Assembly (NCBI GenBank): GCA_949296805.1
Contig: CASFPO010000007.1
Coordinates: 17,291-81,290 of the forward strand
Reading direction: 5' to 3'
Length of the DNA stretch: 64,000 nt
Source: an uncultured Bacillota bacterium
GTDB lineage: Bacteria > Bacillota > Clostridia > Christensenellales > UBA1242
The notes beneath the pieces are model-generated. The model had not been told where the DNA came from. It made no database searches and saw only the letters and a list, made by a program, of their open reading frames with translations. Position numbers and translations under genes: made by a program. This document shows, piece after piece, positions 13,385 through 52,562 of the stretch; position 1 is the stretch's first letter; the number at the start of each line of letters is the position of its first letter.

Positions 13385-13415
13385 AAAAAAGCAACTTTAT
13401 AAAAAGTTGCTTTTC
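13385..13415 (+). terminator. Intrinsic terminator of the rubrerythrin-like gene
   Basis: GCAACTTT (13391-13398), ATAA loop, AAAGTTGC (13403-13410), then TTTT. Confidence 0.8.
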
Positions 13416-13669
13416 CTCTTTAGTACCTCATCTTTGCGAGATGTCTTTATCTTTTGTATGAAACTATTGCAAGGCATATTTTTATAAATTTTTTTGGAGT
13501 ATAAATAATTTCTCGATTACAAAAATAAGATTAATGTTTCCTACAAGGTCTTTTCTTTGTACAAGGATTGCCTTGCAATAAGCTTTTACACTGGGTCACA
13601 AAAATGCCTTTTGCGACCCAGTCTTTTGTACTGCTAATCTTTAACCTATGTAATTTATGTTAGAAGATT

Positions 13670-13948: not shown

Positions 13949-14062
13949 TTAAAAAATCTCCTTTTAAAACAATAGGCTTCCACCTTGTGAACATTCTAGC
14001 ATATTTTAAGCGAATGTGCAAACTTTTTTACGCAATTTTACAAAATCTTTAAAATTAGCCTA

Positions 14063-14950: not shown

Positions 14951-14991
14951 AACGCCCTCTCAATAGATAAATAATAACTTTTTTTGCCTAT

Positions 14992-15576: not shown

Positions 15577-15603
15577 AATTTTCTCCTTTTATTTTTTCAA
15601 AGC

Positions 15604-16068
15604 TTACTCCACCGTTCGCAAAAGTTTGACAAGGTCAGCAAAGGCGGGCTCTTTTTTTAGATAAGCTTTTATGTCACTATCAAAGTTTTTGGTGGTAATC
15701 ATAAAACAGCCAAGGCAGTCGCCACAATTGACAAAAACTTGAAGGGTGTAAAACAGCTCATCCTTAAACCCCCTTATCACATACAAAGGAAAAACAAAAT
15801 CCTTTATGCGAAGGTTGGTAAAAAAAATAAACTCATACTTGCCCGTCAAAACGCTATACTTTTCTGTAAGCTGTTGGTAGGATTGATAAAATTCTTCTGG
15901 GTCACGATGGACTTCAAAAAGAGAGATAACCCTGCCCTCTTGCGAAAAATAATTTTCTCGATTGATAAAACCTTGCCCGTTATCTAAAAAGTATCGGTCT
16001 TGGCTAACTTGATAGCCTTTAGGCAAGTCAAAGGACATTTCATTTAAGGTGCGAATAATTCTCTTCAT
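15604..16068 (-). CDS. Hypothetical protein
   Basis: 154-aa ORF in a compact minus-strand gene string. No recognisable motif. Confidence 0.5.
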   Translation of the reverse strand: MKRIIRTLNEMSFDLPKGYQVSQDRYFLDNGQGFINRENYFSQEGRVISLFEVHRDPEEFYQSYQQLTEKYSVLTGKYEFIFFTNLRIKDFVFPLYVIRGFKDELFYTLQVFVNCGDCLGCFMITTKNFDSDIKAYLKKEPAFADLVKLLRTVE

Positions 16069-16173
16069 CCTCTCTCCCCTTTTATGATAACTCTTTTAAC
16101 AAAAAAAGTCAAGGTTAAAGGATACTTAACTTCTGCTTGCTTAAAAAAATTTTTACAAAAGGCAAAACCATAT

Positions 16174-16509
16174 CTAAAAACTACTTAATGCATACATCAT
16201 CATATCATTAACGCTTTGGTCAGTTAGATAGTAGACTAAAATTTTGCCATCTCGCTTGTAAGCGACTATATTTTGGTCTTTAAGCTGTTTAAGTTGATGA
16301 GAGATAGTGGTCTGATTGATATTAAGCACATTTGACAGGTCATTGACGCACATATTCATCATAGAAAGACAGGTTAAAATCTTTATCCTGGTCGAGTCAG
16401 AAAAGTTTTGAAAATAGTCAGCAAGCTTGCTTATAGCCTTTTCCTCTGGAAGCGTGGAAAGAATTTCTTGTTTATTTCGCTCACTTAAAAGTAAAAATCT
16501 ATTTTGCAT
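16174..16509 (-). CDS. ArsR/SmtB-family transcriptional regulator
   Basis: 111 aa, FSDSTRIKILTCLSMMNMCVNDLSNVLNINQTTISHQLKQLKDQNIV (wHTH). It has a single Cys at the position of the ELCVCDL metal site. Confidence 0.85.
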   Translation of the reverse strand: MQNRFLLLSERNKQEILSTLPEEKAISKLADYFQNFSDSTRIKILTCLSMMNMCVNDLSNVLNINQTTISHQLKQLKDQNIVAYKRDGKILVYYLTDQSVNDMMMYALSSF

Positions 16510-28002: not shown

Positions 28003-28193
28003 AGTTTAATATATGTTTTTTATTTTATATTTGATAATTTCTTTTTAATTTATTTTTTATAAATATTTTTATAATTTACGCAAATAATTATTTTATATAT
28101 ATTTATATAAATTAATATATATTTCGTCAAAATATTTTGATTTTTTCCATCACTATGATAAAATGCTTATATATGAATAAGAGGTGTAAAGTT

Positions 28194-34100: not shown

Positions 34101-36650
34101 GGCACTTGGACTCCGCTTGATATCTATCAGCCAGCTCTTAGCTATATTAGTTTTAACTATATAAATAACGGCGCTACCCTGCAAATTGTTATCAATCTTG
34201 GTGCAAATGCCCCACAAAAGGTTAAGTTTGAAATTTTAGACAACTTTGGCAATACCACCACAATTATTCAGCTTGCAAATGAAGTTGCCTATGACGAGAT
34301 AAGCGGAACCTATGCCATCTACACCCTTACCGAAAGTAATGGCGATGTTACCTATCTATCACAAAATGATATTACCTTTACTTACAATGAGCTACTTTAC
34401 ACAATCGATATCTTTGATATAGACGGCACTTCAATAATAGACAGCCTTAACGCTACTCATCTTGCAAATAATCTTGCCACCTATACTTTCTCGGCTGAGG
34501 AAGGTTTGAATATATGGAATGACTACTATAGAATCGATATTTTTGACAGCGAAAATGGAGATTATTTAAGAACACTCCACCTTCGTCTTTACTATCAACT
34601 GCCATACTTGACTTTCCAAACAAGCGAAGTTGAAAATGGCGGTATAGCCTTCTTTGATAGAAACCTTGTTCTATTTGAGAGAAATGACTTTGGTCAAGAG
34701 ACTGGAGTAACTGTAAACTTTAACGGAAACTCATACTCGGCTACTGCAACGGTGCTGACCACCTATTCTCCTACTGTTCGTGTGAGGTTTAGAGATGGTC
34801 AAGCCTTAAATTATAACGGTGTTTACTCCTATCAAGATAGCTATGGATACAGCGTATATCTTTCTAGCAATGGTGGTCAATCTTGGACAAACATCAACGA
34901 TAGATATTCTGCAACAAGCGGATACACTATCTCGGGAGTAAATGATTATTTGATTTTAATCATATATGACTCCGACCAAGTATTTACCGACCTATGCCAG
35001 ATTTATAAAATTAGTATTCTTGACTATACTGCCTCTTACTATTATATTACAGTAGACGGGCTGGTTATCGAGCCAAGCGATATGATTTATAAAGATAGTC
35101 AAGGCAAGGAATATCACACAAGCTATCTAGTAGCTGTTGACATTGATGACAAAGATAACAGACTTCATGTAAATCCTAACACAGAGCTAAATGTTGTAAT
35201 AAGCTCGCCAGTTGTTTCTAGCACAGGCACAGATGTTTCTGTTGAAACTTATTCCTATTCTTGCAATCAATCACGTGGCGATTTTGCAATAATCTATATC
35301 CCGCCATCTGATAATATAGTAACCGAGTTTACAGCTGAAACTACCTCTGGCGGTGTTACTAACTTAAGATTAAATTCTGGCTCAGTAGCTACTGTGGTGG
35401 ATGGCGAAGATGAACGCCAATATGACAGAATTAAAATTAATTTTACCTCTTATTATGGAATCAGCCAAAACTTAGTTAATATTGAGGTATTAAAATACTT
35501 TAATGGTCAATATGTTCAAATTACCCCACAGGTATACACTTCTGGCACAACAAACTATATTTATCTTGAAAAAGCTGGCTCTTATAGGTTAAGACTTTAT
35601 GACTCCTGCCAACCTGCCAACGAGCAGAGTTTTAATGGCAATCGCTACTTTGACCTTATCTTCTTAAACGGAGTGCCTTTCACTATAACCTATACCGACA
35701 CTATAACAGGCGAGCAAGTAATCTCTGAAAGAGTTGACAGGGCTGTATATAACGGAAGTGTTATCCTTTCGCTTTACAACCTTTCTACCTACTATCAAAT
35801 TGGTCACTATCCAAGAATTTCAGTTACTCGAAATGGTGCAAGTTACACGGGTTATACTTCTTCTAATAACACTTACACCTTTACAAGTCCTGGCTACTAC
35901 ACTGTAACTTTTGTGGATGCTATATCTTCGCTTGAGGGCGAGGCAAAAGAGTTGCGACAAGACCAATTTAACTTTACTATCATAAATGAAAATGAATCTC
36001 GCTATTCTTATACCTTTAGTCCATATAAAAATTACTATGTTGAAAGCGTTATTAAATATAATGGAGATAATGAAGTTGATATCACTCAAGATTTGATAGA
36101 TATAGGCAACTTTGAAACGGTACAGATAAACGGCAGGACTTACCTTTCGGAAGTGTCACTTAGCTACCTTGACAACAAAACTGGCAGTGGTAAATACAAA
36201 CTAACTATCAACACTAACGATTTAACCTATGCAAATTCTACAAGTAGCTCTTACACCTTTGAGTTTTGGCTTAACAATCAAGTTCCGCCTTTGAATATAT
36301 CTTTAAATGAAGGCGATTCAACAACTGGCTCTATCACAATAACCTTTAATGTACAAAACTTCTACAATGCTATGGGCGATTGTTATATCCGCATTGGCTC
36401 TGACTACTACTACTTTACAGCAGACACGCTTGCAAGTTATGGCGATGTTTATACAATAACCATTAATGAGACTGGCACTTATTATGTACAAGTCTACACG
36501 ATGAGTAACAACCTGCTCTACTCAAGCAAAATTGTGAGAAACGAGCCACTAAATGCCTTTGCTATAATTGCTATAATTATTGGTGTAATTGCTTTAGTAG
36601 CTATCATCTTAATAACAATCAGACTTAGAAAGAGGCAAAAGGTTAAATAA
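28194..36650 (+). CDS. Giant (2818 aa) N/Y/S/T-rich surface protein with N-terminal signal (possible lipobox LLAC) and C-terminal TM anchor
   Basis: Start moved to MISKRLFNGFIISFILIGLLACG (ATG 28194, AAGAGG RBS). The C-terminus is LNAFAIIAIIIGVIALVAIILITIRLRKRQKVK. No LPXTG, and no catalytic motif recognised. Confidence 0.8.
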   Translation: MISKRLFNGFIISFILIGLLACGMFFSSNKLPSTFAEPPTYQMIENTQYDYLDVNQNNTTGNYQDTIFLMQGGQTGSSIDVSIARGDLISNSLGNQNYAYISGLDESGTPREYYYFSFPNNLSLYYNLTNTQVESGQSGTNLLQEQLISTYATSNGDNAFAIESIGLTPQKLEISFLLNTLESQPQFSGNQVILNQEGIYTLVINVNLYFTDNGGITFTPSVATIYYTFMVFNSETYFNFSSGLPNLTPSSNMQSTALPSSNRFSRYYFYNYSYSGDSLTDPNALATISYNPNLYQLTITYVDLNSNSYTSTLVYSNGEFSQVDDNGNVIDESEYFVQSYLEGEDGKVVFLNLGYYDISLQYLYTSEQNVYELPLDQLENTTLLNKDQRLYIYGYQAVYSDYASIDPVTNQPEAVELKTYNLEELVQENSADITASVNNYLVNHPDIIGSSANNTSNPISYVGVNYKTVSAPMPFDNDLIETMALTYLNELEISPASTNQTPIKFITNGNLSAVNSRIYRLTTTRTDGIVSYQTDGYSNFEGFNQNEPGIYLYLIQYSYDNYLSTTGTLQNSYYHYQIFFFEITNTLPTVTVLDEELNEVYASGFTNKGVYIINDSQSNNYDAEVTITLSAYNYNRENDNDNRENDNYNRENYYYYDQDITTLSNYGIYYTYFEYLSGEENSLYNEKLGGKYGIYIDPSNPYSNAYYTINVYSANTTQPSTKYFTIDTSEISGISARSVSFSSNNTYRIGSALSSYNTNQPTVFSWNEKPSGARTYGYVKYIPLSSINYYSSQTNSASLTQLLNYWLDEGILPVSYKIDFSQTNQSSWSEYRNSLSFTSTIDATYVKSNAGFYILEVYDQAGNSKFEVFLLDTTQPLFVQHTQYNSEIRQIMTNNQSISVPESGTRMWIEWGSQKAIYLESLEAYQLITPYRYSPDYQADAVRLSEKLNEFFSSSSEDIYRATTITVGTVNSTTESGQVTTGISSYNGNYLLIDIDEVSFIRDTTSSTYSRWQGIYSYELTFLDENNEAIEGTYRILIRDSSNSYITGNETYDFLNNPSAFLTFNVTSDDAKLSVYRGEGELLAFSSFNNSGNLYYYEENGETIYTHLPVINETDLEQSELTYRFAYYSPVNADENLIVSFIPLAENGSTLEYVTVTYYPYIKSQYVVDGVYYYYYDISDNPQDIQQIPIFTYSSNDTYEPGAVVTFDLSLGSGTLPSAGRYVLERQYIEGNETDQYDYFRRTITFDVDEFGIISPLETVDNGESSSLESIVGGDIILSMYSGEGNSSIEVSFPSYSQDTGLNSGSFYTQEEFVSEDIVPSFSVSGNKLPMSLYVPKYKFTTHAVYDEATNSYSVNYNNGLSYYGNSYYSLGSDNLWHVYSEGVEISEPFNSESEALAFLQDKASIAEYVLQAKIVAYVTENGISTTKYYYSDGSTTNGYLNFFETAENGIITSTSPAVDNFYLQGNYVVTLYQSYNDPQSSFYSFYKFGFVIESDEPEYNLLDSEGYQLNEVTPGVYYTNSDSITVQWEVPTSNYQAKINEDFDYIYITSSGSFSHSGEVIADGNTRSFTIDCSDLILTNGSSLSITLEFEGHNSSFYRRTTKTIYFDRSAPLENLNNLMANTESATEIFTTNYQQLEFRSYQDYQGEALEVTASNLSEIANASYSYTISTGTFRYFSYNVTTSFFNDVLMQSLRNASTNTFGTQEIYYRQIPALDSYTQVDRHSFAENSYFSLMVDDNLSLSCGYYEIVERDHAGNMTVYLVYVIDSTFEVDENVSDIALSYINNNHTESNYVYSSQISNGYNIYSNSGFTLEQVSYKSDPWNIFYVQLYGQSPVRYLTSPWLEEGYVYRVTISSSAIDFQQIALSTIFASVESSSNKHILTLTDRTSGSMQNVYLAIMDANIYTEKVEDPQRTSAILNISVPTLAQYQSTTTAYVFPTNIKIYQFNPLSSQEDGYDILMEANQLTYGTWTPLDIYQPALSYISFNYINNGATLQIVINLGANAPQKVKFEILDNFGNTTTIIQLANEVAYDEISGTYAIYTLTESNGDVTYLSQNDITFTYNELLYTIDIFDIDGTSIIDSLNATHLANNLATYTFSAEEGLNIWNDYYRIDIFDSENGDYLRTLHLRLYYQLPYLTFQTSEVENGGIAFFDRNLVLFERNDFGQETGVTVNFNGNSYSATATVLTTYSPTVRVRFRDGQALNYNGVYSYQDSYGYSVYLSSNGGQSWTNINDRYSATSGYTISGVNDYLILIIYDSDQVFTDLCQIYKISILDYTASYYYITVDGLVIEPSDMIYKDSQGKEYHTSYLVAVDIDDKDNRLHVNPNTELNVVISSPVVSSTGTDVSVETYSYSCNQSRGDFAIIYIPPSDNIVTEFTAETTSGGVTNLRLNSGSVATVVDGEDERQYDRIKINFTSYYGISQNLVNIEVLKYFNGQYVQITPQVYTSGTTNYIYLEKAGSYRLRLYDSCQPANEQSFNGNRYFDLIFLNGVPFTITYTDTITGEQVISERVDRAVYNGSVILSLYNLSTYYQIGHYPRISVTRNGASYTGYTSSNNTYTFTSPGYYTVTFVDAISSLEGEAKELRQDQFNFTIINENESRYSYTFSPYKNYYVESVIKYNGDNEVDITQDLIDIGNFETVQINGRTYLSEVSLSYLDNKTGSGKYKLTINTNDLTYANSTSSSYTFEFWLNNQVPPLNISLNEGDSTTGSITITFNVQNFYNAMGDCYIRIGSDYYYFTADTLASYGDVYTITINETGTYYVQVYTMSNNLLYSSKIVRNEPLNAFAIIAIIIGVIALVAIILITIRLRKRQKVK

Positions 36651-40265: not shown

Positions 40266-42995
40266 TTAAGCGGAGTGGTCGGCATCCCAACAGCAATTTT
40301 TATATTTCTTCCCACTTCCGCAAGGGCAAGGGTCATTTCTGCCCGCTTTTGGCTTATCGTTATATACGGTTTTTTGCACTTGAAGTTTTTGCTTTTTAGC
40401 TTTTTCGGCTCGCTCCTCTGGAGAAAGTTCTTTGCCTGTAAAGAGAATTTTAACTGGCTCTGGTTGTTTTGGCACTTCTCGTCTGATTCTGGCATTGAGC
40501 AGAGTTTTACACGTCATCTCTTTAATCTTTTCTACCATCGAGTCGAACATATCAAAGCCCTCTTTTTTATAGGCAAAGATTGGGTCTTGTTGACCAAATT
40601 GACGAGAGAGGATTTCATCCTTCATAATCTGCATATTTTCAATCTGGCTCATCCAATTTATATCTACCATACGAAGAAGAACATTCCGCTCAATATCTTC
40701 AAAGTTTATGCCAAGCTCTTTTACCTCTTGCACTCGCTCGTCATAGCGTTTGTTTACCTCAGCTAGTACCTTTTCTGTAAGCTCATCCACATCGCAATCT
40801 TCAACAAATTGTTCGTCTATAAGATTGCTTTCCTTTTCAAGAAAGCCATTTTCAAGCTCTTTATTGAGTGCTGGCAAGTTCCATTCATAATATGGGATTT
40901 CGTCAGAGATTATTTTGTTTATGCTAGAGCGTAGCACCTCTGGAAGCATCCTCATAATTTGGTCATGCACAGGCTCGCCATCAAGGACTTTATTTCTCTC
41001 GCTATAGATAATCTCACGTTGCTTATTCATAACATCGTCAAATTGGAGAACAGTCTTTCTGATTGAGAAGTTTTGAAGTTCTACCTTACGCTGAGAGTTT
41101 TCTATCTGTTTTGAGAGTTGTTTAAGCTGGATAGGTGTTGAATCGTCAAACTTAAAGAAGGCTAAGAGCTTACGCAGTCTATCAGTTGCAAATCTTTTGA
41201 ACAGGTCATCATCAAGCGATAAGAAGAACACGCTTGAGCCAGGATCGCCTTGACGGCCTGACCTTCCTCGAAGCTGATTGTCAATTCGCCTAGACTCGTG
41301 TCGCTCAGTTCCGATTATATGAAGTCCGCCTAGAGATATAACTGTTTCCTTTTCTTTATCTGTGATTGCTTTATACTTATTAAATAAGTTGTTATACTCT
41401 TCTCTTGCTCTGTTTAACGCCTCATCTTCAAGGTAGTTAAAAGCGGTTGCATAGGATATCTCCTCATCACTAAAGCCCTTGTCTTTCATCTCCTTTTTAG
41501 CCATAAACTCAGGGTTTCCGCCAAGCAAAATATCAGTACCACGCCCTGCCATATTTGTTGCAATGGTTATTGCACCAACTCTGCCTGCCTGGGCTACGAT
41601 TTCGCTTTCCCTTTCATTATTTTTAGCGTTTAAGACTTGATGTTTGATGCCCTCTTTTTTAAGTTCCTGCGAGAGCATTTCTGACTTATCAATATTGATT
41701 GTACCAATAAGAGCTGGCTGACCTGTCTTTTCGCAGTCCTTTATCTCTTCAATGATTGCCTTAATCTTGCCTTTTTCTGAGATGTACATAATATCTGGGT
41801 AGTCAACTCTCTGCCTTGGTTTATTGGTTGGAATTATAACTACGTCAAGGTTATAAATTGTTCTAAACTCGCCCTCTTCGGTCTTGGCAGTACCTGTCAT
41901 ACCTGAGAGTTTTTTGTACAGCCTAAAGAAGTTTTGGAAGGTTATTGTAGCAAGCGTTTGGTTTTCATCACGGATGTCGACACCTTCTTTAGCCTCAATT
42001 GCCTGATGCAAACCCGAGCTAAATCGTCTACCCGGAGACAGACGGCCGGTAAACTCGTCAACTATGATAACCTCGCCATCTTTGACGATATAGTTTTCAT
42101 CTCGGTGCATAATAAAGTTGGCACGAAGAGCGTTGTTGATATAATGGCTAAGCTCAATATTTTCAATATCAGAAAGGTTGTCTATATGGTAAAAACTTTC
42201 TGCCTTTTTGATACCTTTATCGGTAAGGTTGATTTGTTTGGTCTTGATATCTATTTCAAGATCTACCCCTGCCTTTAAGGTTTTTGCAAAGTTTTGTGCT
42301 ATCTTATAGCCATCGGTTGACTTATTGCCTCTGCCACTGATGATAAGCGGAGTCCTTGCCTCGTCAATCAAGATACTGTCCACCTCGTCGACTATGGCAA
42401 AGTTGAGCCCTCGCTGAACACGAGCGTTTTTGTTGATTGCCATATTATCTCTAAGATAGTCAAAGCCCAGCTCGTTATTTGTTGTATAGGTTATGTCGGC
42501 ATTGTATGCCTCTTTCTTTTGCTTATCATTTTGACCGTTTAGTGAAACTCCAACCGTCAATCCTAAAAATTTATAGACCTTACCCATCCACTCGGCATCA
42601 CGTTTTGCAAGGTATTCGTTTACAGTAACTACATGCACGCCCTTGCCAGTGATAGCATTAAGATAGGCAGGCAAGGTTGCCACCAAGGTTTTACCTTCTC
42701 CTGTAGCCATCTCAGCAATTCTGCCTTGATGGAGAGCAATACCGCCCAAGATTTGCACGTAGAAGTGCCTCATATTTAAAACTCTTGCCGAGGCTTCCCT
42801 TACAACCGCATAGACCTCTGGAAGAAGGTCGTCAAGGCTTTCGCCTACCTTGTATCTATTTTTAAATTCCTCAGTGCAAGCACGCAGTTGGTCATTGGTA
42901 TAATTTTTATACTTCTCTTCAAGAGCGACAACCTTATCTGCAATTTTCTTGAGTTTTTTAACTTGTGCTTTATTTTCATTACCAAAAAGTCCCAT
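40266..42995 (-). CDS. secA: Preprotein translocase ATPase SecA
   Basis: 909 aa. MATGEGKTLVATLP (Walker A), DEVDSILIDEARTPLIISG, C-terminal zinc motif CPCGSGKKYKNCC. Confidence 0.98.
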   Translation of the reverse strand: MGLFGNENKAQVKKLKKIADKVVALEEKYKNYTNDQLRACTEEFKNRYKVGESLDDLLPEVYAVVREASARVLNMRHFYVQILGGIALHQGRIAEMATGEGKTLVATLPAYLNAITGKGVHVVTVNEYLAKRDAEWMGKVYKFLGLTVGVSLNGQNDKQKKEAYNADITYTTNNELGFDYLRDNMAINKNARVQRGLNFAIVDEVDSILIDEARTPLIISGRGNKSTDGYKIAQNFAKTLKAGVDLEIDIKTKQINLTDKGIKKAESFYHIDNLSDIENIELSHYINNALRANFIMHRDENYIVKDGEVIIVDEFTGRLSPGRRFSSGLHQAIEAKEGVDIRDENQTLATITFQNFFRLYKKLSGMTGTAKTEEGEFRTIYNLDVVIIPTNKPRQRVDYPDIMYISEKGKIKAIIEEIKDCEKTGQPALIGTINIDKSEMLSQELKKEGIKHQVLNAKNNERESEIVAQAGRVGAITIATNMAGRGTDILLGGNPEFMAKKEMKDKGFSDEEISYATAFNYLEDEALNRAREEYNNLFNKYKAITDKEKETVISLGGLHIIGTERHESRRIDNQLRGRSGRQGDPGSSVFFLSLDDDLFKRFATDRLRKLLAFFKFDDSTPIQLKQLSKQIENSQRKVELQNFSIRKTVLQFDDVMNKQREIIYSERNKVLDGEPVHDQIMRMLPEVLRSSINKIISDEIPYYEWNLPALNKELENGFLEKESNLIDEQFVEDCDVDELTEKVLAEVNKRYDERVQEVKELGINFEDIERNVLLRMVDINWMSQIENMQIMKDEILSRQFGQQDPIFAYKKEGFDMFDSMVEKIKEMTCKTLLNARIRREVPKQPEPVKILFTGKELSPEERAEKAKKQKLQVQKTVYNDKPKAGRNDPCPCGSGKKYKNCCWDADHSA

Positions 42996-43270
42996 TTAAA
43001 ACAAATTCTCCTTAAAAAATAATCTTACTATAATTTTAACCATTTTTACCTAAAAGTCAAATTTTTTATTGACTTACTATAAAAATTAATGTTACAAAAG
43101 GGCTTTTTTGAAATAAATTCAAGATATTTTAGCGGATTTTTTGCTTATCTTAACTAATTAATTAATTTTATTTTGAAAAAATCAGCCAATTTATTAAAAC
43201 TGCTATTGACTTAAAATAATTATTGTTGTATAATAAACATAAGATATTTTTAGTAAAAAAAGGAGATATT

Positions 43271-45646
43271 ATGGGATTTCTATCAGCAATAAAAAAGAAG
43301 ATTAGCTCTCTTTCCGCTAGCATAAAAGACAGCAGAAGATACCGCCCTGCTTATCTTAAAGAAGCGGTAAAATCTGCCGACCTTAAGAAAGATACTTTTT
43401 CTGGCTACAACGCAGTCAACGGCTTTCAGCTTAGAACAGGCGAGAGCAATTTTATAGAAAAGACAGCCTATTATGAGGACTTTTCTACCGCTCATTTTGA
43501 TAAAAATTTTGCTAAAAAGCACAAAAATATTGATGATGTGCTTGCTTTTGTAAAAAATTTGGCGAATTTTATTCCAGAAAGTGAATACCGCACGCAAATT
43601 AACACTGCAAATAGGCGAAGAAGAGGCTCTTCTTCAAACCCTACTCAGCTTTCGGTAGAAGGGCTATTTGAATACTTTTCGGGCGGGCAGAATTTGAGCG
43701 AAGAGGACATTATCGCCTACTCAAACATTGCCAAAAACACTCAAGCAAAAGCTAGAGCCCTTGCCTATATCAAAGCTAACTTTGTTAGCATTTGCAATAT
43801 GCGTTCTTTATCGGACAAAGACGAAAAGGCAAGTCTTGACAAGTATAAGGAGCTATTTTCTATCATCAAAGATTATTGTGATGAGGACATCAACAAATTT
43901 AATATTACCGAGTTTAACCCAGAAAATATCAATAGTGAAATATTATCTTCAGAGAACAACCTTTTAAAAGGTGCATATTTTGCTCAGATTAGGTGTGACG
44001 AGCTTGTTAAAACAAGGATTAATCAAGAGCTTGCCAAGGCAGAAAAGCTTAACCAGTTTGCCGAGGAGCTTTCTAGCAATATGCAAACTTATGATAAAAG
44101 CATTGAGGCAATTGACAATATAAACAATGCAAAACTTGCAAGAGAGCAAGCCCTCGCCCTTAAACTCGAGGAGACTGACGAAAAGTTAATTGAAGCCCTT
44201 GACTACTTTAGAAGAATGCCTTCTTGCAGTGACAAAACTCTTGAAAAATTATGGATTACTGGCAAGAGAGATGCTAAAAAGGCAGGCACACTTAGACAGC
44301 AAGAGCTACTTGACTCGCTTGAGCGAATGGTTAGGTCAAGTGCCTTTGATATGTATGATGCGATTAGCCAAAAACAAATTGACGCTTTAGACAAGCCTTA
44401 CAGTCAAGAAGAAAGACTTGTAACAGTTTTTGATAGTAATAGTAACGAAACTGACAAAATAGCAAATCTTAGTGCTAAGGACTTTTCTATCTTTGGCGGA
44501 GAAGATGGCGACTATAACGCTTTTATTAATACTCTTGTTTCATATAATGAATATGACGGAGTTGACCACAGTGGCGACATTTTAAGAGTGCGAGTTGATA
44601 ATAGCCAAGACCCACCTATGCTTTACACTGACAGACAAGAAAAGGTGCTTAAAAGCATCTATCTTAAGCTAAACAATTATGCAAAACAGATGGTCAATTC
44701 TGCTGACTTTGATGGCAATCCGCTTAAAAACCTTTGCTACAGCTCACTTAGAAAGTCTATTGACGATAACGCTTTAGACAAACTAGCAACTATTCTTTAT
44801 GGAGACAATGTAAAGCAAGGTCAAATATTTACCTACCCTACTTTTGCCAAGCTTTCAGTAAAACAACTTGAGGCGATTGGCGACTTTGTAACCACTTACA
44901 AACCAGTAAAATCTTTCTTGCAAGACACTGGGCTTAAAGAAAGCGACCTTGACAATTATGAGATTGACAGACAACTTGTTGAGCAACTTTCGCCAGAAAA
45001 ATCTCCAAGATACTGCAAACTTAAATATGTGATGAACTCTATGCAACGCAGTGCCCTTGAGTATAACCGAGAAACTTTAAAGCAAAGGCAGGAGCAGAAT
45101 GAAAAAGCCATCAACTCAAATCTTGTAGACAGCGAAACTTTATTTGAAGATGCAAAGATTTGCTTAGAAAATATTCAAGATATATACGATGAAAACAAAA
45201 CGATTGAAGAAAAAGAAGAATATGAAATTGCACCTGACACCGTAGCCCAAGGTGCTGACAGCAACAATGACGCTAAGGATAGAATTGACACCTTTGCATA
45301 TGGTATGTTACAAAGTGCTTTCCTTCCTGATGAGCCAGAACAAATCAATCAAAACACCGTACGTTTGGGCAAAATACAACCAAGCAACAGATTAGCCTTT
45401 GAAGAGAAAACTTTTGAAGAGAACATTGACGAACTTGTACAACTAACCAAAGATACCCTAAAGGATTATTCAAATGACCTTAAAAAATTGCCTAAACTTA
45501 CTAAAAAGCAAAAGGCAGAGCTTTACGCAAAGCATATAACCGCTAGCGACTATAAAACTATCAGCAATTGGACAAATTTTATTAGTGAGACGGTTAAAGC
45601 GTTGCAAACTAGTGAAAACTTCCAAGAAAATGAAAGTTCAATTTAA
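43271..45646 (+). CDS. Large hypothetical protein (791 aa), predominantly helical, N-terminal amphipathic MGFLSAIKKKISSL
   Basis: Start moved to ATG 43271 (AAAGGAG RBS). No TM segment, signal peptide or catalytic motif recognised. Confidence 0.7.
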   Translation: MGFLSAIKKKISSLSASIKDSRRYRPAYLKEAVKSADLKKDTFSGYNAVNGFQLRTGESNFIEKTAYYEDFSTAHFDKNFAKKHKNIDDVLAFVKNLANFIPESEYRTQINTANRRRRGSSSNPTQLSVEGLFEYFSGGQNLSEEDIIAYSNIAKNTQAKARALAYIKANFVSICNMRSLSDKDEKASLDKYKELFSIIKDYCDEDINKFNITEFNPENINSEILSSENNLLKGAYFAQIRCDELVKTRINQELAKAEKLNQFAEELSSNMQTYDKSIEAIDNINNAKLAREQALALKLEETDEKLIEALDYFRRMPSCSDKTLEKLWITGKRDAKKAGTLRQQELLDSLERMVRSSAFDMYDAISQKQIDALDKPYSQEERLVTVFDSNSNETDKIANLSAKDFSIFGGEDGDYNAFINTLVSYNEYDGVDHSGDILRVRVDNSQDPPMLYTDRQEKVLKSIYLKLNNYAKQMVNSADFDGNPLKNLCYSSLRKSIDDNALDKLATILYGDNVKQGQIFTYPTFAKLSVKQLEAIGDFVTTYKPVKSFLQDTGLKESDLDNYEIDRQLVEQLSPEKSPRYCKLKYVMNSMQRSALEYNRETLKQRQEQNEKAINSNLVDSETLFEDAKICLENIQDIYDENKTIEEKEEYEIAPDTVAQGADSNNDAKDRIDTFAYGMLQSAFLPDEPEQINQNTVRLGKIQPSNRLAFEEKTFEENIDELVQLTKDTLKDYSNDLKKLPKLTKKQKAELYAKHITASDYKTISNWTNFISETVKALQTSENFQENESSI

Positions 45647-45653
45647 TAACTTT

Positions 45654-45681
45654 AAAAAAGCATAAATTTTATGCTTTTTTT
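45654..45681 (+). terminator. Intrinsic terminator between the two large hypothetical genes
   Basis: GCATA (45660-45664)/TATGC (45670-45674) core within AGCATAAATTTTATGCT, then T7. Confidence 0.75.
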
Positions 45682-45724
45682 GTTGACCCAAAAGTATTAA
45701 AATTTTGCCCTTCCGCCATTTTTC

Positions 45725-45753
45725 TTGACAAATAACTTATATAATGATATTAT
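45725..45753 (+). promoter_or_regulatory. Candidate promoter of the 1765-aa gene
   Basis: TTGACA (45725-45730), 17 nt, TATTAT (45748-45753). Confidence 0.5.
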
Positions 45754-45785
45754 TATACTATAATACTTTATACAAAGGAGTAAAT

Positions 45786-48700
45786 ATGGCAGTAGAAAAT
45801 TCTGTTTCTATTAACGTAGATGTTAACGCACAAAACTCAGAAGGCAAACCGCTTAGTCAAAAAATAACAATGCACAACAAGCATTTTTGGGACGAAGACT
45901 CTTATTTTGCTTGTAGCGATGGCAGTGATAACCTTTTGCAAGTGGGACCTAAAAAATTAGTTCACTATTTTACCCTTAGCGGACTTGACAAATTTTTATC
46001 AGAGGATGGGCGATCGCTTTCAGCTGACAGCACACTTGCCTCTATCCTAACAAAAGGTATTTCCCTTGGAATGCACTCTTTGCAGGTAAGCCAAAATGGT
46101 AAAGACCTTAATATTGATATTGACGCCTCGGGCTACCATATCTCTGTTACACCAAGACAAATTACTTTAACTTATTCTAGTGGCGAGGAGAAGAAAAGCT
46201 ATTCTTACTCGTCAGAGGGCTGTGTTGATGTATCTTTTAATGCCATTGTAGTTATAAATATGCTGCTTTCTGAGCGAGCTACCACTGTAAAAAGTGCTGA
46301 AGATATTTATGACATACCACCTTATTTGCTTGGAATGTATTTTAAAAATCACAAAGATGACTTTACTAACAAGATAGACAAAACAAAGCTTACAAAAATC
46401 ACTTTTACTGAAGATGGACAGCCTTACTGCTTTGTTACCCACGTCAATAAAAAAAATGAAAGAGAAGTTTTGCTTTTTACAGGCGGAAAACTAGTACCTT
46501 TACAAGATATTATGGAGCCTCAGTATGACCCGTCTACCAACAGCTATAACCTTGTTGCTACTTCAAAATCGGCTGAGCATCCAGAACACTTTGCTATACC
46601 TATTGAAGTAGACGAAGAGGGCTTTATTTCTGACAAAACTTTAACAGGACTTTCTGTTCTATTTGTTGAAACCAGACTTGATTATGATGTTACCGCACCA
46701 GATGGAACGTATATAGACTTTATTAATGAGGTAGATGGCAAGGAAAAACTAAATAAAGACGCTTTTGTTGAAAAAGGCACTATAGAATATACCCCAAACT
46801 TTTTTGCCATAATGCCAGTAGAGGCTGAAGGTAACGAGGCTGAGGGTGACGCTAGTAGCACAAGTGGTAGCGAAGAGGCAACAGGAACTGGTGGCGAAGA
46901 TCCAGCAGGTGCTGGTAGCGAAGAGCCTACGGGAGCTGAAAGTGAAGAGTCGGCAGAAACCAGTGGCAGTGCGTCAGCAGGAGAACCAGCAGGAGCTGAT
47001 GGTGGAGAGCCAGCTGGTGCGGGGGCTGGTGGCGGAGCTGGTGCTAGTGCGTCATCTGGTGCGGGAGATAGAAGCGGAGAGGCTTCTGGCAAACCACATG
47101 CCAACAATCCATACCTTAACTACTACAATTATCAAAACAGTGCTGAAGCCAAGCAAGAGCTTAAAGAGAGAAATGCTCAATTTAAGGCAAATATGCAAAC
47201 TTTTAACACTGCAATGGGCGACAGTTTGTTCGGAGTTGGTGCTATTATGACGCTTGTTTCACTTATACCAGGGGTTGGGCTTGCAGTAATGATACCTGGG
47301 TTGATACTATCTTGCGTAGGACTTGTGCAAACAACTTTTGCCGATGACCTTGTATTTAGTCCTTTTAAGGTTGCAAAACACAAGATAAGAGATTACCGAT
47401 TTGAAGAGGGAGAAGAATTTGAGTACCGTAGCAAGTTTTTAGAGCGAGAGAAGGAGCTTGACAGACTGCACGAAAATTCGCAGGAGGCGTTAAGTGAATT
47501 TCTTTCAATATACTCAAATTTAGGCGAAGGCGAAAATACCTTTGCCCTCACTTTGGCAGAGCTATTTAACAGCAATGGTGTGGGCATAGCTATAGACGGC
47601 GACAAGATGTCACAACTCCACTCGCTTGACCATTTAGACCAAAGTATAGCTATGGCGTCTATCCTTGAGCAGATAGCGAGCGAAACGTCAGAAGAAGAAA
47701 AAGCCAAGCTTATTGAAAGTTTTGCAGACAATTATTTTCAAGACTTAACCGAGGAGCAGTTAAATTTAATTAATACCACCCTCTTCAGTGACAGTAACAA
47801 AGAAGGGCTAAAGGCTTATTTAAGGCAACTAAACCAAACAAATACCGTTTTAGCACAAGAGAGAACACTGTTTAACTCTCAGCAACAGGAGCTTGATAAT
47901 GCGACCATCTATCGAATAAAGTTTTTTGCTAGCACGCCACAGCTTTCTGAGGAGCAGAGAGTAAAATTATTTGAGAGATATGGCGAAGATATTATAAAAT
48001 TTGCCCTTACTAAATATAACGGCTCTGCGCAGATTCTAGAAAGTATTGTATCCTCTGCGCCAGAGGGCACTCAAGCTCAGCTTAACGAGATACTTGACAA
48101 CGCTTTTGATAGGGTTCAAGCCAAGTTTGACTCAATAGATAAGCAAGCGTCTGACAATGTTGCAAAACACGAGCAAGTAGAGGTTTTGCGTGGGTTTGCT
48201 GGTGCTATATCACAGCTTGAAAATGTGGGCGACAATCTTGTGACAATTGACCAGCTTAGCCAATCGGTAAAGGAGTTTACAAATGGTTGCACTCAGCTCT
48301 TGCATCAAGACAGCAAAGCAATGGAAAGCCTTGGCGCAATTGCTGATGCATTAGTTCGAGGCAAGTCTCATCTTGACGCTTCGCATAGAAATGAACAATC
48401 TATTCTCAATCAAATTGCTAGCTATTTTGCAGGGTTTGAGGATACTTCGGCTGAGGCTACAAGTTTGACTGACAAGCAAAAGGAATGTTTTGAAAAACTT
48501 GAAGAGGCAGGCTTTTATAAAGAGATTGCCACTTTGTATCAGCATCAATCGACTCGCACTTTGCTTCCAGCTTTATCTGGCAAGGTAGAGAGCGAGGAGA
48601 GTATAATTAATATTGTAGACATTTTGGCAAAGGAGAGGTTACTCTCTGTTATTGAAGAGGCTAGCAAGAGCAGTGGCGCACGAACACTGCTGAGCAAAAA

Positions 48701-51083
48701 GACTCCTCAAGAGCTTGCCGAGATGATAGAGGTAGCAGACGATGGCACAGTAACTGTTAATTTTGGCGGAGTAAGTTTTGAGTACACAAACGAAGATAAG
48801 CAAGAGTGCTTGTCCACTCTTGACTATGTAAATGCAAGAGCCGAATATGACAAGGAGAAAAATAAAACTGCAATAAACCTTATAGATGACAATTTTGTTA
48901 AGCTTGCCTTGACCGATGTAAATAACTCTAGCTCGCCTATTGCAAGGTTTGACAGTGCAAGCGGAAGCTATATAGTTGAAAATTATAATGACTCTGAGCA
49001 CCCTACGATAACAACAGAGGCAGAATTATTTGCAGACCTTGAGCGAAGATACCCTAGCTTTGCCTCTTACGATGAGGAGACTAAGCGAAGGTTTGTGCTT
49101 ACTAAACTTGGTCTAGAAGGTCAGCAAGCAAGGCTTAAACATATGACAGAAAAGCTTAACCTAATCTCAGAGCGAGAAGAGTTAAGGCTTGAGAGCGAGA
49201 TTAAAAAGGGCGTAAATGTTGAGGCTAATAAAACCAAAAAGGCTGAGCTTAATGCAAGACGCACGGCAAAAGAGCAGGAATACGAGGTGTTATCTGCCAT
49301 CTACAGTAATGCGGAAGAGCTAATAAATGCTATTTTAAGTGGAAAGGTTGACCGCTTGTATGATGACCTAACTATCAGAAAAACCTTAGAAGATGAGGTA
49401 GACCTTGACTCTACTACCCTCTCCGACCTTGGCGCAGAAGTGAGCAAAAAGGTTGTGCAGTACACTGCGTTTGAAAAGCTTATCACTGACTTGCCATTAT
49501 CGGAGCAAGAGAAAAAGGATATAACTCAAGCTATCAAGACCAACCTTTCTACTCACAGTACCACACCACTTGACCAAATAGTTAGAGAGGAGCTAAAACC
49601 TTATCTAGAGAGTGCTACTGTTGACGGAAAAACTTGTCAGGCAATCTTGACACCTTTCTTTGAAGATGGCAAGCTTGACGGCAAGAAAACCGAAGAATTT
49701 TGTCAAAGCAAGGACGAGTTAATCGATAAGAGAACAAAATTAAATCTGACTTCAGCTAAATTCCTCTTTGGCGATAAATACACCAAAAAGCAGTATAAAA
49801 CTAGCAAAAATAGAGCCAAGGCAACAGAGCAGACCTATACTGACTATGTTGACTTCTTTGCAAAAAATAGCAAGTTTGACAGCAGAACTAAAAAGACCCC
49901 ACTCTACCCTGACAAAACTTTTGAAAGTGAAGAAGAGCTAAAAGAGCAAATTATTAGCGACCTAGCAAAAGCTAAAACAAAAAGAGCGCAAGATAAAGTT
50001 ATCTCTGGCTTTGCAATAGCGTTGGGCTGTGAAAAAGAGTACAAGTCTGCTAAAAAACTTATTGCCGATAAAAATATACAAAATGACGACAATAGAACTT
50101 ATATTAAGGCTACCGCAACAAAGAGCAAACGCCAAAGGGCTCACGAAAAGGTAGAGTCGTTTGTTCAAGACCTACTTAGCTCTGATTTGACAACTGCTGA
50201 CAAAATTGAAGAAGAAAAGCTTAGACAAAAAGTATTTGACCATCAACAAGCGTTTGACGCTATGGGTGTTTCTGCAAAAACACTGATTGAAACTTTGCAA
50301 AATGACAAATTAACCCAAGAGCAGAAGGAAGAAAAAATTAAAGAATGGCAAGAGCAGTATAACCTTAATAGAGAACTTGACGATATGCAACTTGATGACA
50401 TCATTGCAGTTGCAGATGAGGCAAGGTTTGGCGCAACGGAAGAAGATAGAGCTAAAATAAGAGCAAAAGCTATATACAAGAGGCAAAAAAGCGCTTATGC
50501 AATATACAGCAAAAAGAGCAAGTTGATAGAAAAGTTTTTGACCGAAAACCCAACCTATCCTTATGCACAAGAACTTATTAACGCCTTTGCAAAGGGCGAC
50601 CAAAGTTTCTTTGATTTGCACCCTGAGGCTAGGCAAGAAGGACTTTCTTTTGACGTAAACGATTTACACTATATGCAATATCTTGGCATAGATAGTTCTT
50701 CCTTTACAGGAAAAACAGTAGGAAAAAATCCTTCGCTTTCTGATAAAGAGAGAAAGAAGTTTGAAAAGACCTTAAAGAAAACTGCTCAAAAACTGACAGA
50801 AAAATTGCAAGAAGAAAGAGCAATGGCAACCGTTAGAATGGAGCAGAACTATAAAGCTTTTAGCAATCAGACCAAGGATGTAAATACCACTTATGGACGT
50901 GACAAAACAAGAAATAGAGATGCACGTGATGAAAATATAGTGCCACTATCTATCGCCCTGCAAAGACTTAAACTTGCAAGACAAAAAACCACTGCTCAAG
51001 AGCATACGCCGTCTGCTCCTAGCGCTGAAGCGACTAGAGTAACAGCGTCAGCACGTGAAGATGAAGGACGAGAAAGCGAATAA
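45786..51083 (+). CDS. Very large hypothetical protein (1765 aa): N-terminal globular region, acidic G/A/E/S disordered segment, TM hairpin, ~1250-aa E/K-rich helical region
   Basis: Start moved to MAVENSVSINV (ATG 45786, AAAGGAG RBS). TM hairpin FGVGAIMTLVSLIPGVGLAVMIPGLILSCVGLV. No P-loop or other catalytic motif seen. Confidence 0.75.
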   Translation: MAVENSVSINVDVNAQNSEGKPLSQKITMHNKHFWDEDSYFACSDGSDNLLQVGPKKLVHYFTLSGLDKFLSEDGRSLSADSTLASILTKGISLGMHSLQVSQNGKDLNIDIDASGYHISVTPRQITLTYSSGEEKKSYSYSSEGCVDVSFNAIVVINMLLSERATTVKSAEDIYDIPPYLLGMYFKNHKDDFTNKIDKTKLTKITFTEDGQPYCFVTHVNKKNEREVLLFTGGKLVPLQDIMEPQYDPSTNSYNLVATSKSAEHPEHFAIPIEVDEEGFISDKTLTGLSVLFVETRLDYDVTAPDGTYIDFINEVDGKEKLNKDAFVEKGTIEYTPNFFAIMPVEAEGNEAEGDASSTSGSEEATGTGGEDPAGAGSEEPTGAESEESAETSGSASAGEPAGADGGEPAGAGAGGGAGASASSGAGDRSGEASGKPHANNPYLNYYNYQNSAEAKQELKERNAQFKANMQTFNTAMGDSLFGVGAIMTLVSLIPGVGLAVMIPGLILSCVGLVQTTFADDLVFSPFKVAKHKIRDYRFEEGEEFEYRSKFLEREKELDRLHENSQEALSEFLSIYSNLGEGENTFALTLAELFNSNGVGIAIDGDKMSQLHSLDHLDQSIAMASILEQIASETSEEEKAKLIESFADNYFQDLTEEQLNLINTTLFSDSNKEGLKAYLRQLNQTNTVLAQERTLFNSQQQELDNATIYRIKFFASTPQLSEEQRVKLFERYGEDIIKFALTKYNGSAQILESIVSSAPEGTQAQLNEILDNAFDRVQAKFDSIDKQASDNVAKHEQVEVLRGFAGAISQLENVGDNLVTIDQLSQSVKEFTNGCTQLLHQDSKAMESLGAIADALVRGKSHLDASHRNEQSILNQIASYFAGFEDTSAEATSLTDKQKECFEKLEEAGFYKEIATLYQHQSTRTLLPALSGKVESEESIINIVDILAKERLLSVIEEASKSSGARTLLSKKTPQELAEMIEVADDGTVTVNFGGVSFEYTNEDKQECLSTLDYVNARAEYDKEKNKTAINLIDDNFVKLALTDVNNSSSPIARFDSASGSYIVENYNDSEHPTITTEAELFADLERRYPSFASYDEETKRRFVLTKLGLEGQQARLKHMTEKLNLISEREELRLESEIKKGVNVEANKTKKAELNARRTAKEQEYEVLSAIYSNAEELINAILSGKVDRLYDDLTIRKTLEDEVDLDSTTLSDLGAEVSKKVVQYTAFEKLITDLPLSEQEKKDITQAIKTNLSTHSTTPLDQIVREELKPYLESATVDGKTCQAILTPFFEDGKLDGKKTEEFCQSKDELIDKRTKLNLTSAKFLFGDKYTKKQYKTSKNRAKATEQTYTDYVDFFAKNSKFDSRTKKTPLYPDKTFESEEELKEQIISDLAKAKTKRAQDKVISGFAIALGCEKEYKSAKKLIADKNIQNDDNRTYIKATATKSKRQRAHEKVESFVQDLLSSDLTTADKIEEEKLRQKVFDHQQAFDAMGVSAKTLIETLQNDKLTQEQKEEKIKEWQEQYNLNRELDDMQLDDIIAVADEARFGATEEDRAKIRAKAIYKRQKSAYAIYSKKSKLIEKFLTENPTYPYAQELINAFAKGDQSFFDLHPEARQEGLSFDVNDLHYMQYLGIDSSSFTGKTVGKNPSLSDKERKKFEKTLKKTAQKLTEKLQEERAMATVRMEQNYKAFSNQTKDVNTTYGRDKTRNRDARDENIVPLSIALQRLKLARQKTTAQEHTPSAPSAEATRVTASAREDEGRESE

Positions 51084-51089
51084 AAGTAA

Positions 51090-51125
51090 AATAAGGCAAT
51101 TTAATTTTTGCCTTATTTTTTTATT
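51090..51125 (+). terminator. Intrinsic terminator
   Basis: AATAAGGCAA (51090-51099)/TTGCCTTATT (51108-51117), then a T-run. Confidence 0.85.
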
Positions 51126-51420
51126 TTTATTATTTTTTTAATTTTTTAAACTTTTTTATTATTTTTTTATATTTTTTTAATTTTTTTGTAATTTATCATT
51201 ATTTTTTATTAATTTTACCTATTTTTAATTATTTTTTAATTATTTTTATTAATTTTTTATTATTTTTTTATTATTTTTTAGCTTTTTTTATTATTTTCTT
51301 ATTAATTATCATTATTTTTTATCATATTAATTAAAAAATATATTTTTATTTTAAAAAATAATTTTATCAGATAAATTTTATTTTATTTTTAAAGCACAAA
51401 ATTTTTAGTTTTGACTTTAC
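51126..51420 (+). repeat. About 300 bp of almost pure A/T with ~10-bp-phased T-tracts
   Basis: Print blocks repeatedly end in T-runs (ttatttttat tattttttta attttttaaa ...). Only a handful of G/C. Confidence 0.8.
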
Positions 51421-51470: not shown

Positions 51471-52562
51471 ATGAAGATTGGTGTTGTAGGTTTGCCAAAT
51501 GTTGGCAAAAGTACATTATTTAATGCGATTACAAATGCGGGAGCTCAAAGTGCAAACTACCCATTTTGTACCATCGAGCCAAACATTGGTATCGTGGATG
51601 TTCCTGACGAGCGGTTGCAAGTGCTTGGCAAGATGTATAATACTTTAAAGATTACCCCTGCCTCGATTGAATTTGTTGATATAGCAGGGCTAGTGGCTGG
51701 TGCGAGCAAAGGCGAAGGGCTTGGCAACAAGTTTTTAAGTCATATTCGTGAAGTTGACGCCATTGTACACGTGGTAAGGTGTTTTACAAATGAAAAGATA
51801 ATTCACGTAAACGGCTCAATTGACCCCATTCGTGATATTGAGGTTATCAATCTTGAGCTTGCCCTTGCCGACCTTGAGCAAGTCACAAAGCTCTATGAAA
51901 AAAACTCAAAGCTTGTCAAGACTGGCGACAAAAGTTTGGCTATGGTTGTTTCATTGCTTGAAAAAGTTAAAAATGCCCTTGAAAATAATATCCCTGCAAG
52001 GCGACTTTCTTTGCAAGAGGAAGAAGAGACACTACTTAAAAACTTTCAACTTTTGACTGCAAAGCCTTGTATTTATGTAGCCAATATTGCTGAAGAAGAC
52101 GTTGGCAAGGCAGACAACGACTTTGTCAAAAAAGTAAAGGAGTATGCAAGCAAAGAAAACGCCAAGGTCATAACCCTTTCTGCTAAGCTTGAAGAAGAAC
52201 TTGCCACTCTTGAAGTTGAAGAGCGAGAGGTTTTTAAAAGGGAGCTTGGCATTACAGAAAGTGGACTTGAAAAGCTGGTCAGTGCAAGTTATGATTTGCT
52301 TGGGCTTATGTCTTTCTTGACTGCTGGCGAAAAGGAAGTGCGAGCTTGGACAATCAAAAAAGGCACAAAAGCACCTCAAGCTGCGGGCAAAATTCACACC
52401 GATTTTGAAAAAGGATTTATTAAAGCTGAAGTGGTCTCTTATGAGGATTTGACCACTTGTGGCTCTTATCTTAAAGCCAAAGAAAAAGGCAAAGTGCGAA
52501 TGGAAGGCAAGGATTATGTAGTACAAGACGGCGATGTTATGCTTTTTAGATTTAATGTTTAA
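51471..52562 (+). CDS. ychF: Ribosome-binding ATPase YchF
   Basis: 363 aa, MKIGVVGLPNVGKSTLFNAIT, with the C-terminal TGS-like domain. Confidence 0.97.
   Translation: MKIGVVGLPNVGKSTLFNAITNAGAQSANYPFCTIEPNIGIVDVPDERLQVLGKMYNTLKITPASIEFVDIAGLVAGASKGEGLGNKFLSHIREVDAIVHVVRCFTNEKIIHVNGSIDPIRDIEVINLELALADLEQVTKLYEKNSKLVKTGDKSLAMVVSLLEKVKNALENNIPARRLSLQEEEETLLKNFQLLTAKPCIYVANIAEEDVGKADNDFVKKVKEYASKENAKVITLSAKLEEELATLEVEEREVFKRELGITESGLEKLVSASYDLLGLMSFLTAGEKEVRAWTIKKGTKAPQAAGKIHTDFEKGFIKAEVVSYEDLTTCGSYLKAKEKGKVRMEGKDYVVQDGDVMLFRFNV

Follow-up and report, generated by a model that had tools for sequence, protein, structure and literature searches.

A fast-diverging giant protein with a predicted membrane hairpin, encoded between secA and ychF in one genus of uncultured Clostridia

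Between secA and ychF, in a 64,000-nucleotide stretch of DNA from an uncultured Clostridia bacterium (the window, which comes from contig C7 of a 1.12-Mb source assembly that is 97% complete), lie two large genes belonging to no family described in the libraries and papers searched. They were picked out in an earlier reading made from the letters alone (the sequence-only reading), and the positions it gave for the two open reading frames (ORFs) are borne out. Gene 1 encodes a protein of 791 amino acids (P1) and gene 2 a protein of 1765 amino acids (P2). P2 is the main subject here: it is a lineage-specific giant, and it is tentatively read as a membrane-anchored cytoplasmic tether or hub. The features of the locus are these:

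40266-42995, minus strand: secA, the left flank, divergently oriented (Pfam SecA domains and the NCBIfam secA equivalog)
43206-43234, plus strand: predicted sigma-70-type promoter of gene 1 (TTGACT-17-TATAAT, 11 of 12 consensus matches)
43271-45646, plus strand: gene 1, encoding P1 (791 amino acids from the ORF translation; all-helical, predicted soluble)
45654-45681, plus strand: terminator-like hairpin between the P1 and P2 genes (A/U-rich, 12 bp, then U7)
45725-45753, plus strand: predicted sigma-70-type promoter of gene 2 (TTGACA-17-TATTAT, with an extended -10 TG)
45786-51083, plus strand: gene 2, encoding P2, the hairpin-anchored giant (1765 amino acids from the ORF translation)
51088-51119, plus strand: terminator 3' of gene 2 (12-bp stem, then a T-run)
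51471-52562, plus strand: ychF, the right flank (NCBIfam TIGR00092, 8.5e-153)

Strong ribosome-binding sites had been claimed for both genes, and GGAG is indeed found 5 nt upstream of the ATG of the P1 gene and again 5 nt upstream of that of the P2 gene. A terminator and a promoter had also been proposed to separate the two. The hairpin at 45654-45681 has a folding energy of -10.4 kcal/mol (z = -4.17), and an equally stable structure occurred in 0 of 200 shuffles; a consensus terminator scan skipped it (fewer than 3 G-C pairs). With this terminator-like hairpin between them and a predicted promoter for each, separate transcription of the two genes is plausible. The ATG at 45786 is the likely start of P2 because the promoter of gene 2 lies downstream of the alternative ATG at 45744, and an independent gene caller has picked the same start (a 1765-amino-acid database entry with 100% identity). 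Between the terminator of gene 2 and the promoter of ychF there is also a stretch of about 200 bp of nearly pure A/T (window 51113-51322), which consists of about 20 copies of a 10-11-bp T-rich unit, i.e. helically phased T-tracts.

The architecture of P2 can be described in five parts. The AlphaFold2 model used for this has a predicted local distance difference test score (pLDDT) of 65 and spans residues 1-1150 only, with residues 1151-1765 outside it.

45786-46685, plus strand: beta-rich head, amino acids 1-300 (three beta-meander-plus-helix units, pLDDT about 75-85)
46692-47141, plus strand: acidic Gly/Ala/Glu/Ser linker, amino acids 303-452 (predicted disordered, pLDDT below 50)
47217-47342, plus strand: hydrophobic hairpin, amino acids 478-519 (central IPGVG turn, Kyte-Doolittle maximum 2.29)
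47343-48185, plus strand: membrane-proximal helical core, amino acids 520-800 (the best-conserved part in alignments)
48186-51080, plus strand: variable helical tail, amino acids 801-1765 (charge balanced to mildly basic near the C-terminus)

The acidic disordered segment noticed earlier is confirmed both by its composition, with 25 acidic against 4 basic residues among positions 301-400, and by its low pLDDT. At the DNA level this linker is coded by short tandem repeats of 15, 24 and 12 bp at 46821-47044, and in an alignment of P2 from two strains 28 of the 28 indel columns lie within columns 301-450, which cover the linker. This suggests that the length of the stalk varies by slippage in the repeats. 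A hydropathy scan finds only one long hydrophobic stretch in P2, at amino acids 478-519, as expected from the single transmembrane hairpin of the sequence-only reading. In the model it is formed by helices 453-492 and 498-517 with the turn at IPGVG, and in alignments it is conserved across orthologues, with a short, uncharged turn. The core that follows carries the motifs FLExExELD, YNxNGxGF, FxxxYF and RYG, and residues 550-790 are modelled as a compact helical domain that is the best-predicted part of the protein (pLDDT 80-89).

The region after the hairpin, about 1250 amino acids, had been described as heptad-like throughout. It is helical as claimed, but the heptads are sparse: the periodicity exceeds the 99th percentile of shuffles in only 13 of 247 scanned segments, 12 of which lie within residues 456-890, and a crude a/d score detects no heptad-rich stretch in P2. 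Past residue 790 the model consists of helices about 5-60 residues long plus two small beta insertions, so that the tail, as modelled, is a series of helical bundles and not one continuous heptad coiled coil. Internal repeats in P2 come down to one weak pair (1107-1195 against 1508-1611, E 0.007). P2 is single-copy in its own genome, where no other protein has the same architecture. A motif scan for Walker A and HExxH found neither in P1 or P2, which agrees with the earlier view that both lack P-loop and protease signatures.

On which side of the membrane the two arms of P2 lie can be predicted from the residues around the hairpin. In a scan of 34 orthologues, a single hydrophobic hairpin of about 30-50 amino acids was found in 33, the other having two shorter overlapping segments. 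Its two 15-residue flanks have an average net charge of about +1 per side, in proteins that are otherwise acidic. By the positive-inside rule, positively charged flanks face the cytoplasm. Because of these flanks, and because P2 has no signal peptide (as had been noted before), the hairpin should place head and tail both in the cytoplasm. The sequence-only reading had put the two arms on the same side of the membrane, and the side can now be specified, as a prediction.

A further argument comes from what is attached to the N-terminus in some species. In three orthologues the N-terminus is a full-length aldo/keto reductase (AKR) domain (PF00248, positions 2-290 of 291, E about 1e-39):

L074, 4537-9648, plus strand: AKR-headed giant (PF00248)
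L075, 3847-8958, minus strand: AKR-headed giant (PF00248)
L076, 3667-8760, minus strand: AKR-headed giant (PF00248)

These frames of 1700-1706 codons occupy the gap between secA and ychF and have their hairpin at about residues 1324-1376. The match of an AKR-headed orthologue to the family profile is not significant, and orthology is therefore assigned by position and architecture. Aldo/keto reductases are a class of cytosolic, NAD(P)H-dependent enzymes, and finding one at the extreme N-terminus, with no signal peptide, speaks for a head in the cytoplasm. In three other members, arrays of BspA-type leucine-rich repeats (LRRs; Pfam LRR_5) precede the beta head, namely in the giant of L018 (5071-11802, minus strand; E 3e-46), in P0033 (3e-71) and in P0024 (5e-19). 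The AKR and LRR_5 heads together point to the N-terminus as the site of module addition.

The giant is found far more widely than profile searches alone suggest. All 24 genomes of the genus that were inspected at this locus, and two strains nearly identical to the source, have one giant between secA and ychF, 741-2244 amino acids long and with an intact frame in every case. Eight of the other genomes of the genus have one giant ORF of 1574-2244 amino acids in the gap that is 22-32% identical to P2, and their flanking genes are 59-96% identical. Across the genus the arrangement is kept, with secA 67-85% and ychF 73-86% identical, and three further species show it as well, one of them at a locus truncated by the start of its contig, so that the secA side is missing. 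A profile built from the conserved region of P2 has matches in 59 of 151 genomes sampled from the genus, with E-values sliding continuously from 1e-189 to 1e-4, which indicates divergence past detection and not gene loss. In nine genomes that are negative or marginal with the profile (the marginal one being G002, E 1e-4), the gap still contains one large ORF of 741-1918 amino acids, and each of these has exactly one hydrophobic hairpin of 38-52 amino acids, at positions ranging from residue 389 to residue 1614. With hhalign, the short forms align to the family over the span from head to hairpin (probability 99.2%, E 1.2e-19), and those whose hairpin is C-terminal align over the head (95%, E 4e-8). 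Since hhalign links the divergent forms in this way, the conserved unit is taken to be head, acidic linker and hairpin, with or without the core of about 300 amino acids. Around this unit the N-terminal extensions vary, up to about 1280 amino acids, and the length after the hairpin ranges from less than 300 to more than 1300 amino acids. Identity within the genus drops to 15-30% and then becomes undetectable.

The family, which has no existing name, can be recognised by its place between a divergent secA and a co-oriented ychF and by a protein that lacks a signal peptide and is built with a beta head, an acidic linker and a single hydrophobic hairpin of about 30-50 amino acids; the P2 gene has all of these features. 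Beyond the genus, a profile search of 57 other genera of the same family gave no homologue of P2, nor did 16 other families of the order yield one, and no P2-like giant is present at 20 ychF and 12 secA neighbourhoods from about 30 other genera of the family. When 1.84 billion representative proteins were searched exhaustively with a profile, 62 relatives came back, all of them giants of the P2 family or fragments, and a word-indexed search of 5.8 billion proteins returned 3-4 close relatives each for P1 and P2. The family to which the source organism belongs comprises dozens of genera with genomes of 0.7-1.6 Mb, compared with 1.3-3.2 Mb in other families of the order. In one genome of another genus (G190, locus L088), two ORFs of 363 and 1164 amino acids (11829-12920 and 12938-16432, both plus strand) lie directly downstream of secA, each with a Gly/Ala-rich, hydrophobic hairpin-like segment. 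The 1164-amino-acid ORF has no profile similarity to the hairpin-giant family, and the two may be analogues of P2 or a coincidence.

Selection on the two genes was judged by comparing the window with the two near-identical strains, one from an ENA contig (L026) and one from a Logan contig (L027). The ratio of non-synonymous to synonymous divergence (dN/dS) is 0.13-0.18 for P1 and 0.25-0.40 for P2, compared with 0.014 for secA and 0.12 for nusG. Synonymous divergence is alike across P1, P2, secA and nusG (0.07-0.10), and at non-synonymous sites P2 evolves about 30-fold faster than secA (dN 0.027 and 0.0009, respectively). P1 and P2 are thus real genes under purifying selection. Within P2 the ratio of non-synonymous to synonymous polymorphism (pN/pS) differs strongly by region: it is 0.06-0.17 for the hairpin and the next 300 or so amino acids (461-800), 0.21-0.25 for the tail (801 to the end), 0.3-0.5 for the acidic linker (301-460) and 0.9-2.1 for the N-terminal 300 amino acids. 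The hairpin and core are under the strongest purifying selection and the head under none, and the contrast between head and core is significant in 3 of 3 strain pairs (Fisher p 4e-5, 3e-3 and 5e-9).

P1 is a different kind of protein. It was said to start with an amphipathic segment and to lack a transmembrane segment, and both statements agree with the data: a hydropathy scan of the full protein found no hydrophobic segment, and the hydrophobic moment near the N-terminus is 0.33-0.50, compared with a protein mean of 0.26. The start, MGFLSAIKKKISSL (MGLFKNI... in relatives), is amphipathic and conserved.

43274-43327, plus strand: N-terminal amphipathic helix of P1, amino acids 2-19 (hydrophobic moment)

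The AlphaFold2 model of P1 (pLDDT 74, predicted template modelling score 0.51, from a 9-sequence alignment) is wholly helical save for one small beta-hairpin, and has very long helices at 230-314 and 584-642. A P1 profile has matches in 14 of 151 genomes sampled from the genus, and by this measure P1 is confined to one subclade. All 14 also have a close P2 (E at most 1e-107), in 13 of them on the same contig and within about 2-3 kb; in G149 the two are on different contigs. The co-occurrence is therefore asymmetric, in that P1 was never seen without a close P2 and P2 mostly occurs without P1. This bears on the earlier proposal of a membrane-tethered scaffold or cytoskeletal-type pair: the tethered scaffold is still the best reading, but the conserved pair has to be given up. 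Two simpler relations between the proteins were tried and dropped. P1 is not a paralogue of P2 (BLASTP E 0.69), and the giants of about 2200 amino acids are not fusions of P1 and P2, as their N-terminal head is the same as that of P2. P1-like ORFs occur in G002 and G015, and neither gives a significant hhalign match to the P1 profile. The one in G002 (L036, 7230-8933, plus strand) is a 567-amino-acid ORF between secA and the giant that has a P1-like start, MGLFMFEKFKEKLK; its match to the P1 profile, in the corresponding place at the N-terminus, is weak and non-significant (hhalign E 0.066), and this ORF may be a P1 that has diverged very far.

Both proteins had been called orphans, and this stands after searches for families, profiles and folds, none of which gave a match to a characterised family. 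Family membership was judged by curated profile cut-offs where the library supplies them; Pfam, NCBIfam, PHROGs and PADLOC gave no match for P1 or P2, the best E-values of about 0.003-0.07 falling far short of the cut-offs. A Pfam scan of 25 family members found nothing but the accreted LRR_5 heads. In a profile search against PDB, P2 matched only designed helical constructs (E 0.017) and P1 matched nothing. For folds, a Foldseek E-value of at most 1e-3 together with a meaningful template modelling (TM) score was taken as the threshold. Against PDB the best E was 0.068 for P1 and 0.52 for P2, with models of moderate quality (pLDDT 74 and 65, for P2 residues 1-1150), and against BFVD the best match of P2 had E 0.011 and a TM-score of 0.07.

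Several known systems nevertheless resemble P1 or P2 in architecture, and the likeness would be of the "works like" kind only. HubP of Vibrio and FimV of Pseudomonas are polar hubs, and their long cytoplasmic region is believed to bring in other proteins. Like P2 they are very large, strongly acidic, fast-evolving and membrane-anchored. Unlike P2 they have a periplasmic LysM domain, a single transmembrane helix and the FimV C-terminal domain, whereas P2 has a hairpin with both arms predicted inside; Pfam detects no LysM or FimV signature in P2, and there is no sequence or fold similarity to HubP/FimV. Chlamydial Inc proteins have a bilobed hydrophobic hairpin of about 40 amino acids with a tight turn, same-side helical or coiled-coil arms and fast, lineage-specific evolution. 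P2 shares the bilobed domain, which is about 40 amino acids long with the central IPGVG turn and is modelled as helix-turn-helix. However, Inc proteins are type III-secreted into the host vacuole membrane and usually have the hairpin near the N-terminus, whereas in P2-type proteins it comes 390-1614 residues into the protein and the evidence favours the bacterium's own membrane. EzrA, a Firmicute protein with a membrane anchor and a long cytoplasmic helical-bundle region, is similar to P2 in just this respect. It differs in having one N-terminal transmembrane helix and spectrin-like repeats, and P2 has no EzrA match in Pfam or Foldseek and no significant internal repeats.

For P1, the closest architectural likeness is to PspA/Vipp1 (IM30, ESCRT-III-like), where an amphipathic N-terminal start is followed by long helices. 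P1 starts similarly, with an "MGLF/MGFL" amphipathic helix and then long helices, but it is about 3 times longer, has no PspA_IM30 match in Pfam, and neither the PDB profile search nor Foldseek gave any hit to PspA, Vipp1 or ESCRT-III. Phage tape-measure and internal virion proteins are, like P2, long and helical with Gly-rich hydrophobic hairpins, and they are the top, non-significant matches of P2 in BFVD (E 0.011-0.09, TM-score below 0.1). In contrast to tape-measure genes, the P2 gene keeps one chromosomal position, between secA and ychF, across the genus, with no PHROGs match or prophage context. An ATPase of the SMC/Rad50 type was rejected: there is no Walker A motif, the SMC matches in Foldseek have TM-scores of at most 0.13 and root-mean-square deviations above 57 Å, and the heptads are sparse.

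The reading of P2 as a tether or hub, which has somewhat less than an even chance of being right, would work as follows. A selected module for anchoring or assembly would be made up of the hairpin and, next to it, the helical core of about 300 amino acids; the flexible acidic linker would keep the beta-rich head off the membrane; in some species an aldo/keto reductase or an LRR array of the BspA type is added to the head; and the long variable tail could offer a further interaction surface. P1 would then be a soluble helical accessory partner that arose in one subclade, with its amphipathic N-terminal helix possibly allowing peripheral membrane binding, and any interaction between P1 and P2 is likewise conjectural. 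Three points weigh against this reading. The topology comes from rules of thumb. No structural or sequence analogue that would support a hub function turned up in the family, PDB or Foldseek searches. Finally, the fast divergence, the pN/pS of about 1 or above in the head and the LRR additions are more typical of conflict or cell-contact proteins than of housekeeping scaffolds.

This last point leads to the main rival, which is unlikely on present evidence. On this view the cell would be in an arms race with phages, or else with a partner or host cell, in which the head serves as target or sensor; it could, for instance, be an exclusion protein or entry factor, or anchor a cell-contact structure on the cytoplasmic side, and the hypervariability would be explained. 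The head pN/pS of 0.9-2.1 between strains in which dN of secA is 0.0009 fits this well, as do the loss of detectable identity inside one genus, the N-terminal LRR_5 additions and a genome of about 1.1 Mb with many giant surface proteins. It is also compatible with the partner-dependent lifestyle proposed for reduced-genome gut Clostridia, family UBA1242 of Christensenellales (PMC12306168), in which the source organism is putatively placed. Against it, there is no PADLOC or PHROGs match, and P2 is a single-copy gene in every genome inspected, at a fixed housekeeping locus as opposed to a variable island. The three near-identical strains show no cassette replacement, dS of P2 being about that of secA. 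The head is predicted to be cytoplasmic, and its pN/pS near 1 may reflect mere relaxed constraint. A bolder version of the tether or hub would combine the two: P2 as a new cortical organiser, hairpin-anchored through a constrained core, with a flexible acidic stalk carrying as exchangeable heads the native beta domain, an aldo/keto reductase or LRR arrays, the head diversifying against a changing factor of phages or partner cells, and the whole a single-copy core gene of one radiating, reduced-genome genus. We regard this, too, as improbable.

It is also conceivable, with rather little confidence, that P2 is a wedge that shapes the membrane, the hairpin and an oligomerising core bending or partitioning it, for instance at poles, septa or the forespore, with the arms secondary. 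Reticulon, caveolin and chlamydial Inc proteins provide the model, as they insert hairpins into membranes. The hairpin is rich in Gly, Ala and Pro, 30-50 amino acids long with a tight turn, and is the sole invariant architectural element; the adjacent core is the most constrained part of P2, and the local heptad signal is limited to roughly residues 456-890. However, Foldseek gives no fold match to membrane-remodelling proteins, and a wedge leaves unexplained why 700-1900 amino acids of variable arms are under purifying selection (tail pN/pS 0.2-0.25). This reading overlaps with the hub model, with the hairpin as effector.

A still weaker case can be made for an exported protein that inserts its hairpin into another membrane, as Inc proteins do, or is displayed on the cell surface. 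The bilobed hairpin with long helical arms resembles the Inc architecture, and BspA-type LRRs, which some members carry, are usually found on surface proteins. Yet P2 has no signal peptide and both hairpin flanks are net positive on average, orthologues carry N-terminal aldo/keto reductase heads, and Clostridia are not known to have a type III secretion system. The surface giants of the same genome have N-terminal signal-like segments and P2 has none. Export is very unlikely. That the two ORFs are decaying, or open by chance in AT-rich DNA, could be argued from the lack of homologues beyond one genus and the very low sequence conservation, but this is refuted, with next to no doubt left, by dN/dS well below 1 for both, by frames of 741-2244 codons intact in every genome inspected across the genus, by the regional pN/pS, by the predicted promoters and ribosome-binding sites, and by confidently folded AlphaFold2 domains.

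New here are the demonstration, from synteny and hhalign, that profile-negative genomes keep the giant gene, a delimitation of the conserved core, the finding that head and core differ in selection at strain level, and the P1 profile across the genus. A single-copy gene of 5 kb, kept at one housekeeping locus in every inspected species with genomes of about 1 Mb, must do something important. Gut Clostridia with reduced genomes are uncultured, and they are believed to rely on other cells. The family has been invisible to annotation because its non-synonymous divergence is about 30 times faster than that of secA, and it is a case where an architecture of head, acidic stalk, hairpin and core is kept while the sequence is lost, and where a membrane anchor can acquire enzyme or LRR modules. 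If a cytoplasmic head is indeed under diversifying selection, this points to a novel intracellular process of conflict or recognition.

Other giant genes occur in the same genome. An ORF of 2837 amino acids at window 28137-36650 (plus strand) has a high content of Ser, Tyr, Thr and Asn, a signal-like segment at its N-terminus and a transmembrane anchor at its C-terminus. Relatives have it in synteny (42-63% identity), and it is probably a giant surface protein. The source genome (G000) has six ORFs of 2837-6413 amino acids, on contigs C39, C35, C11, C1, C49 and C7, and five of the six have an N-terminal signal-like hydrophobic segment. The ten largest ORFs make up about 8% of the 1.12-Mb source genome.

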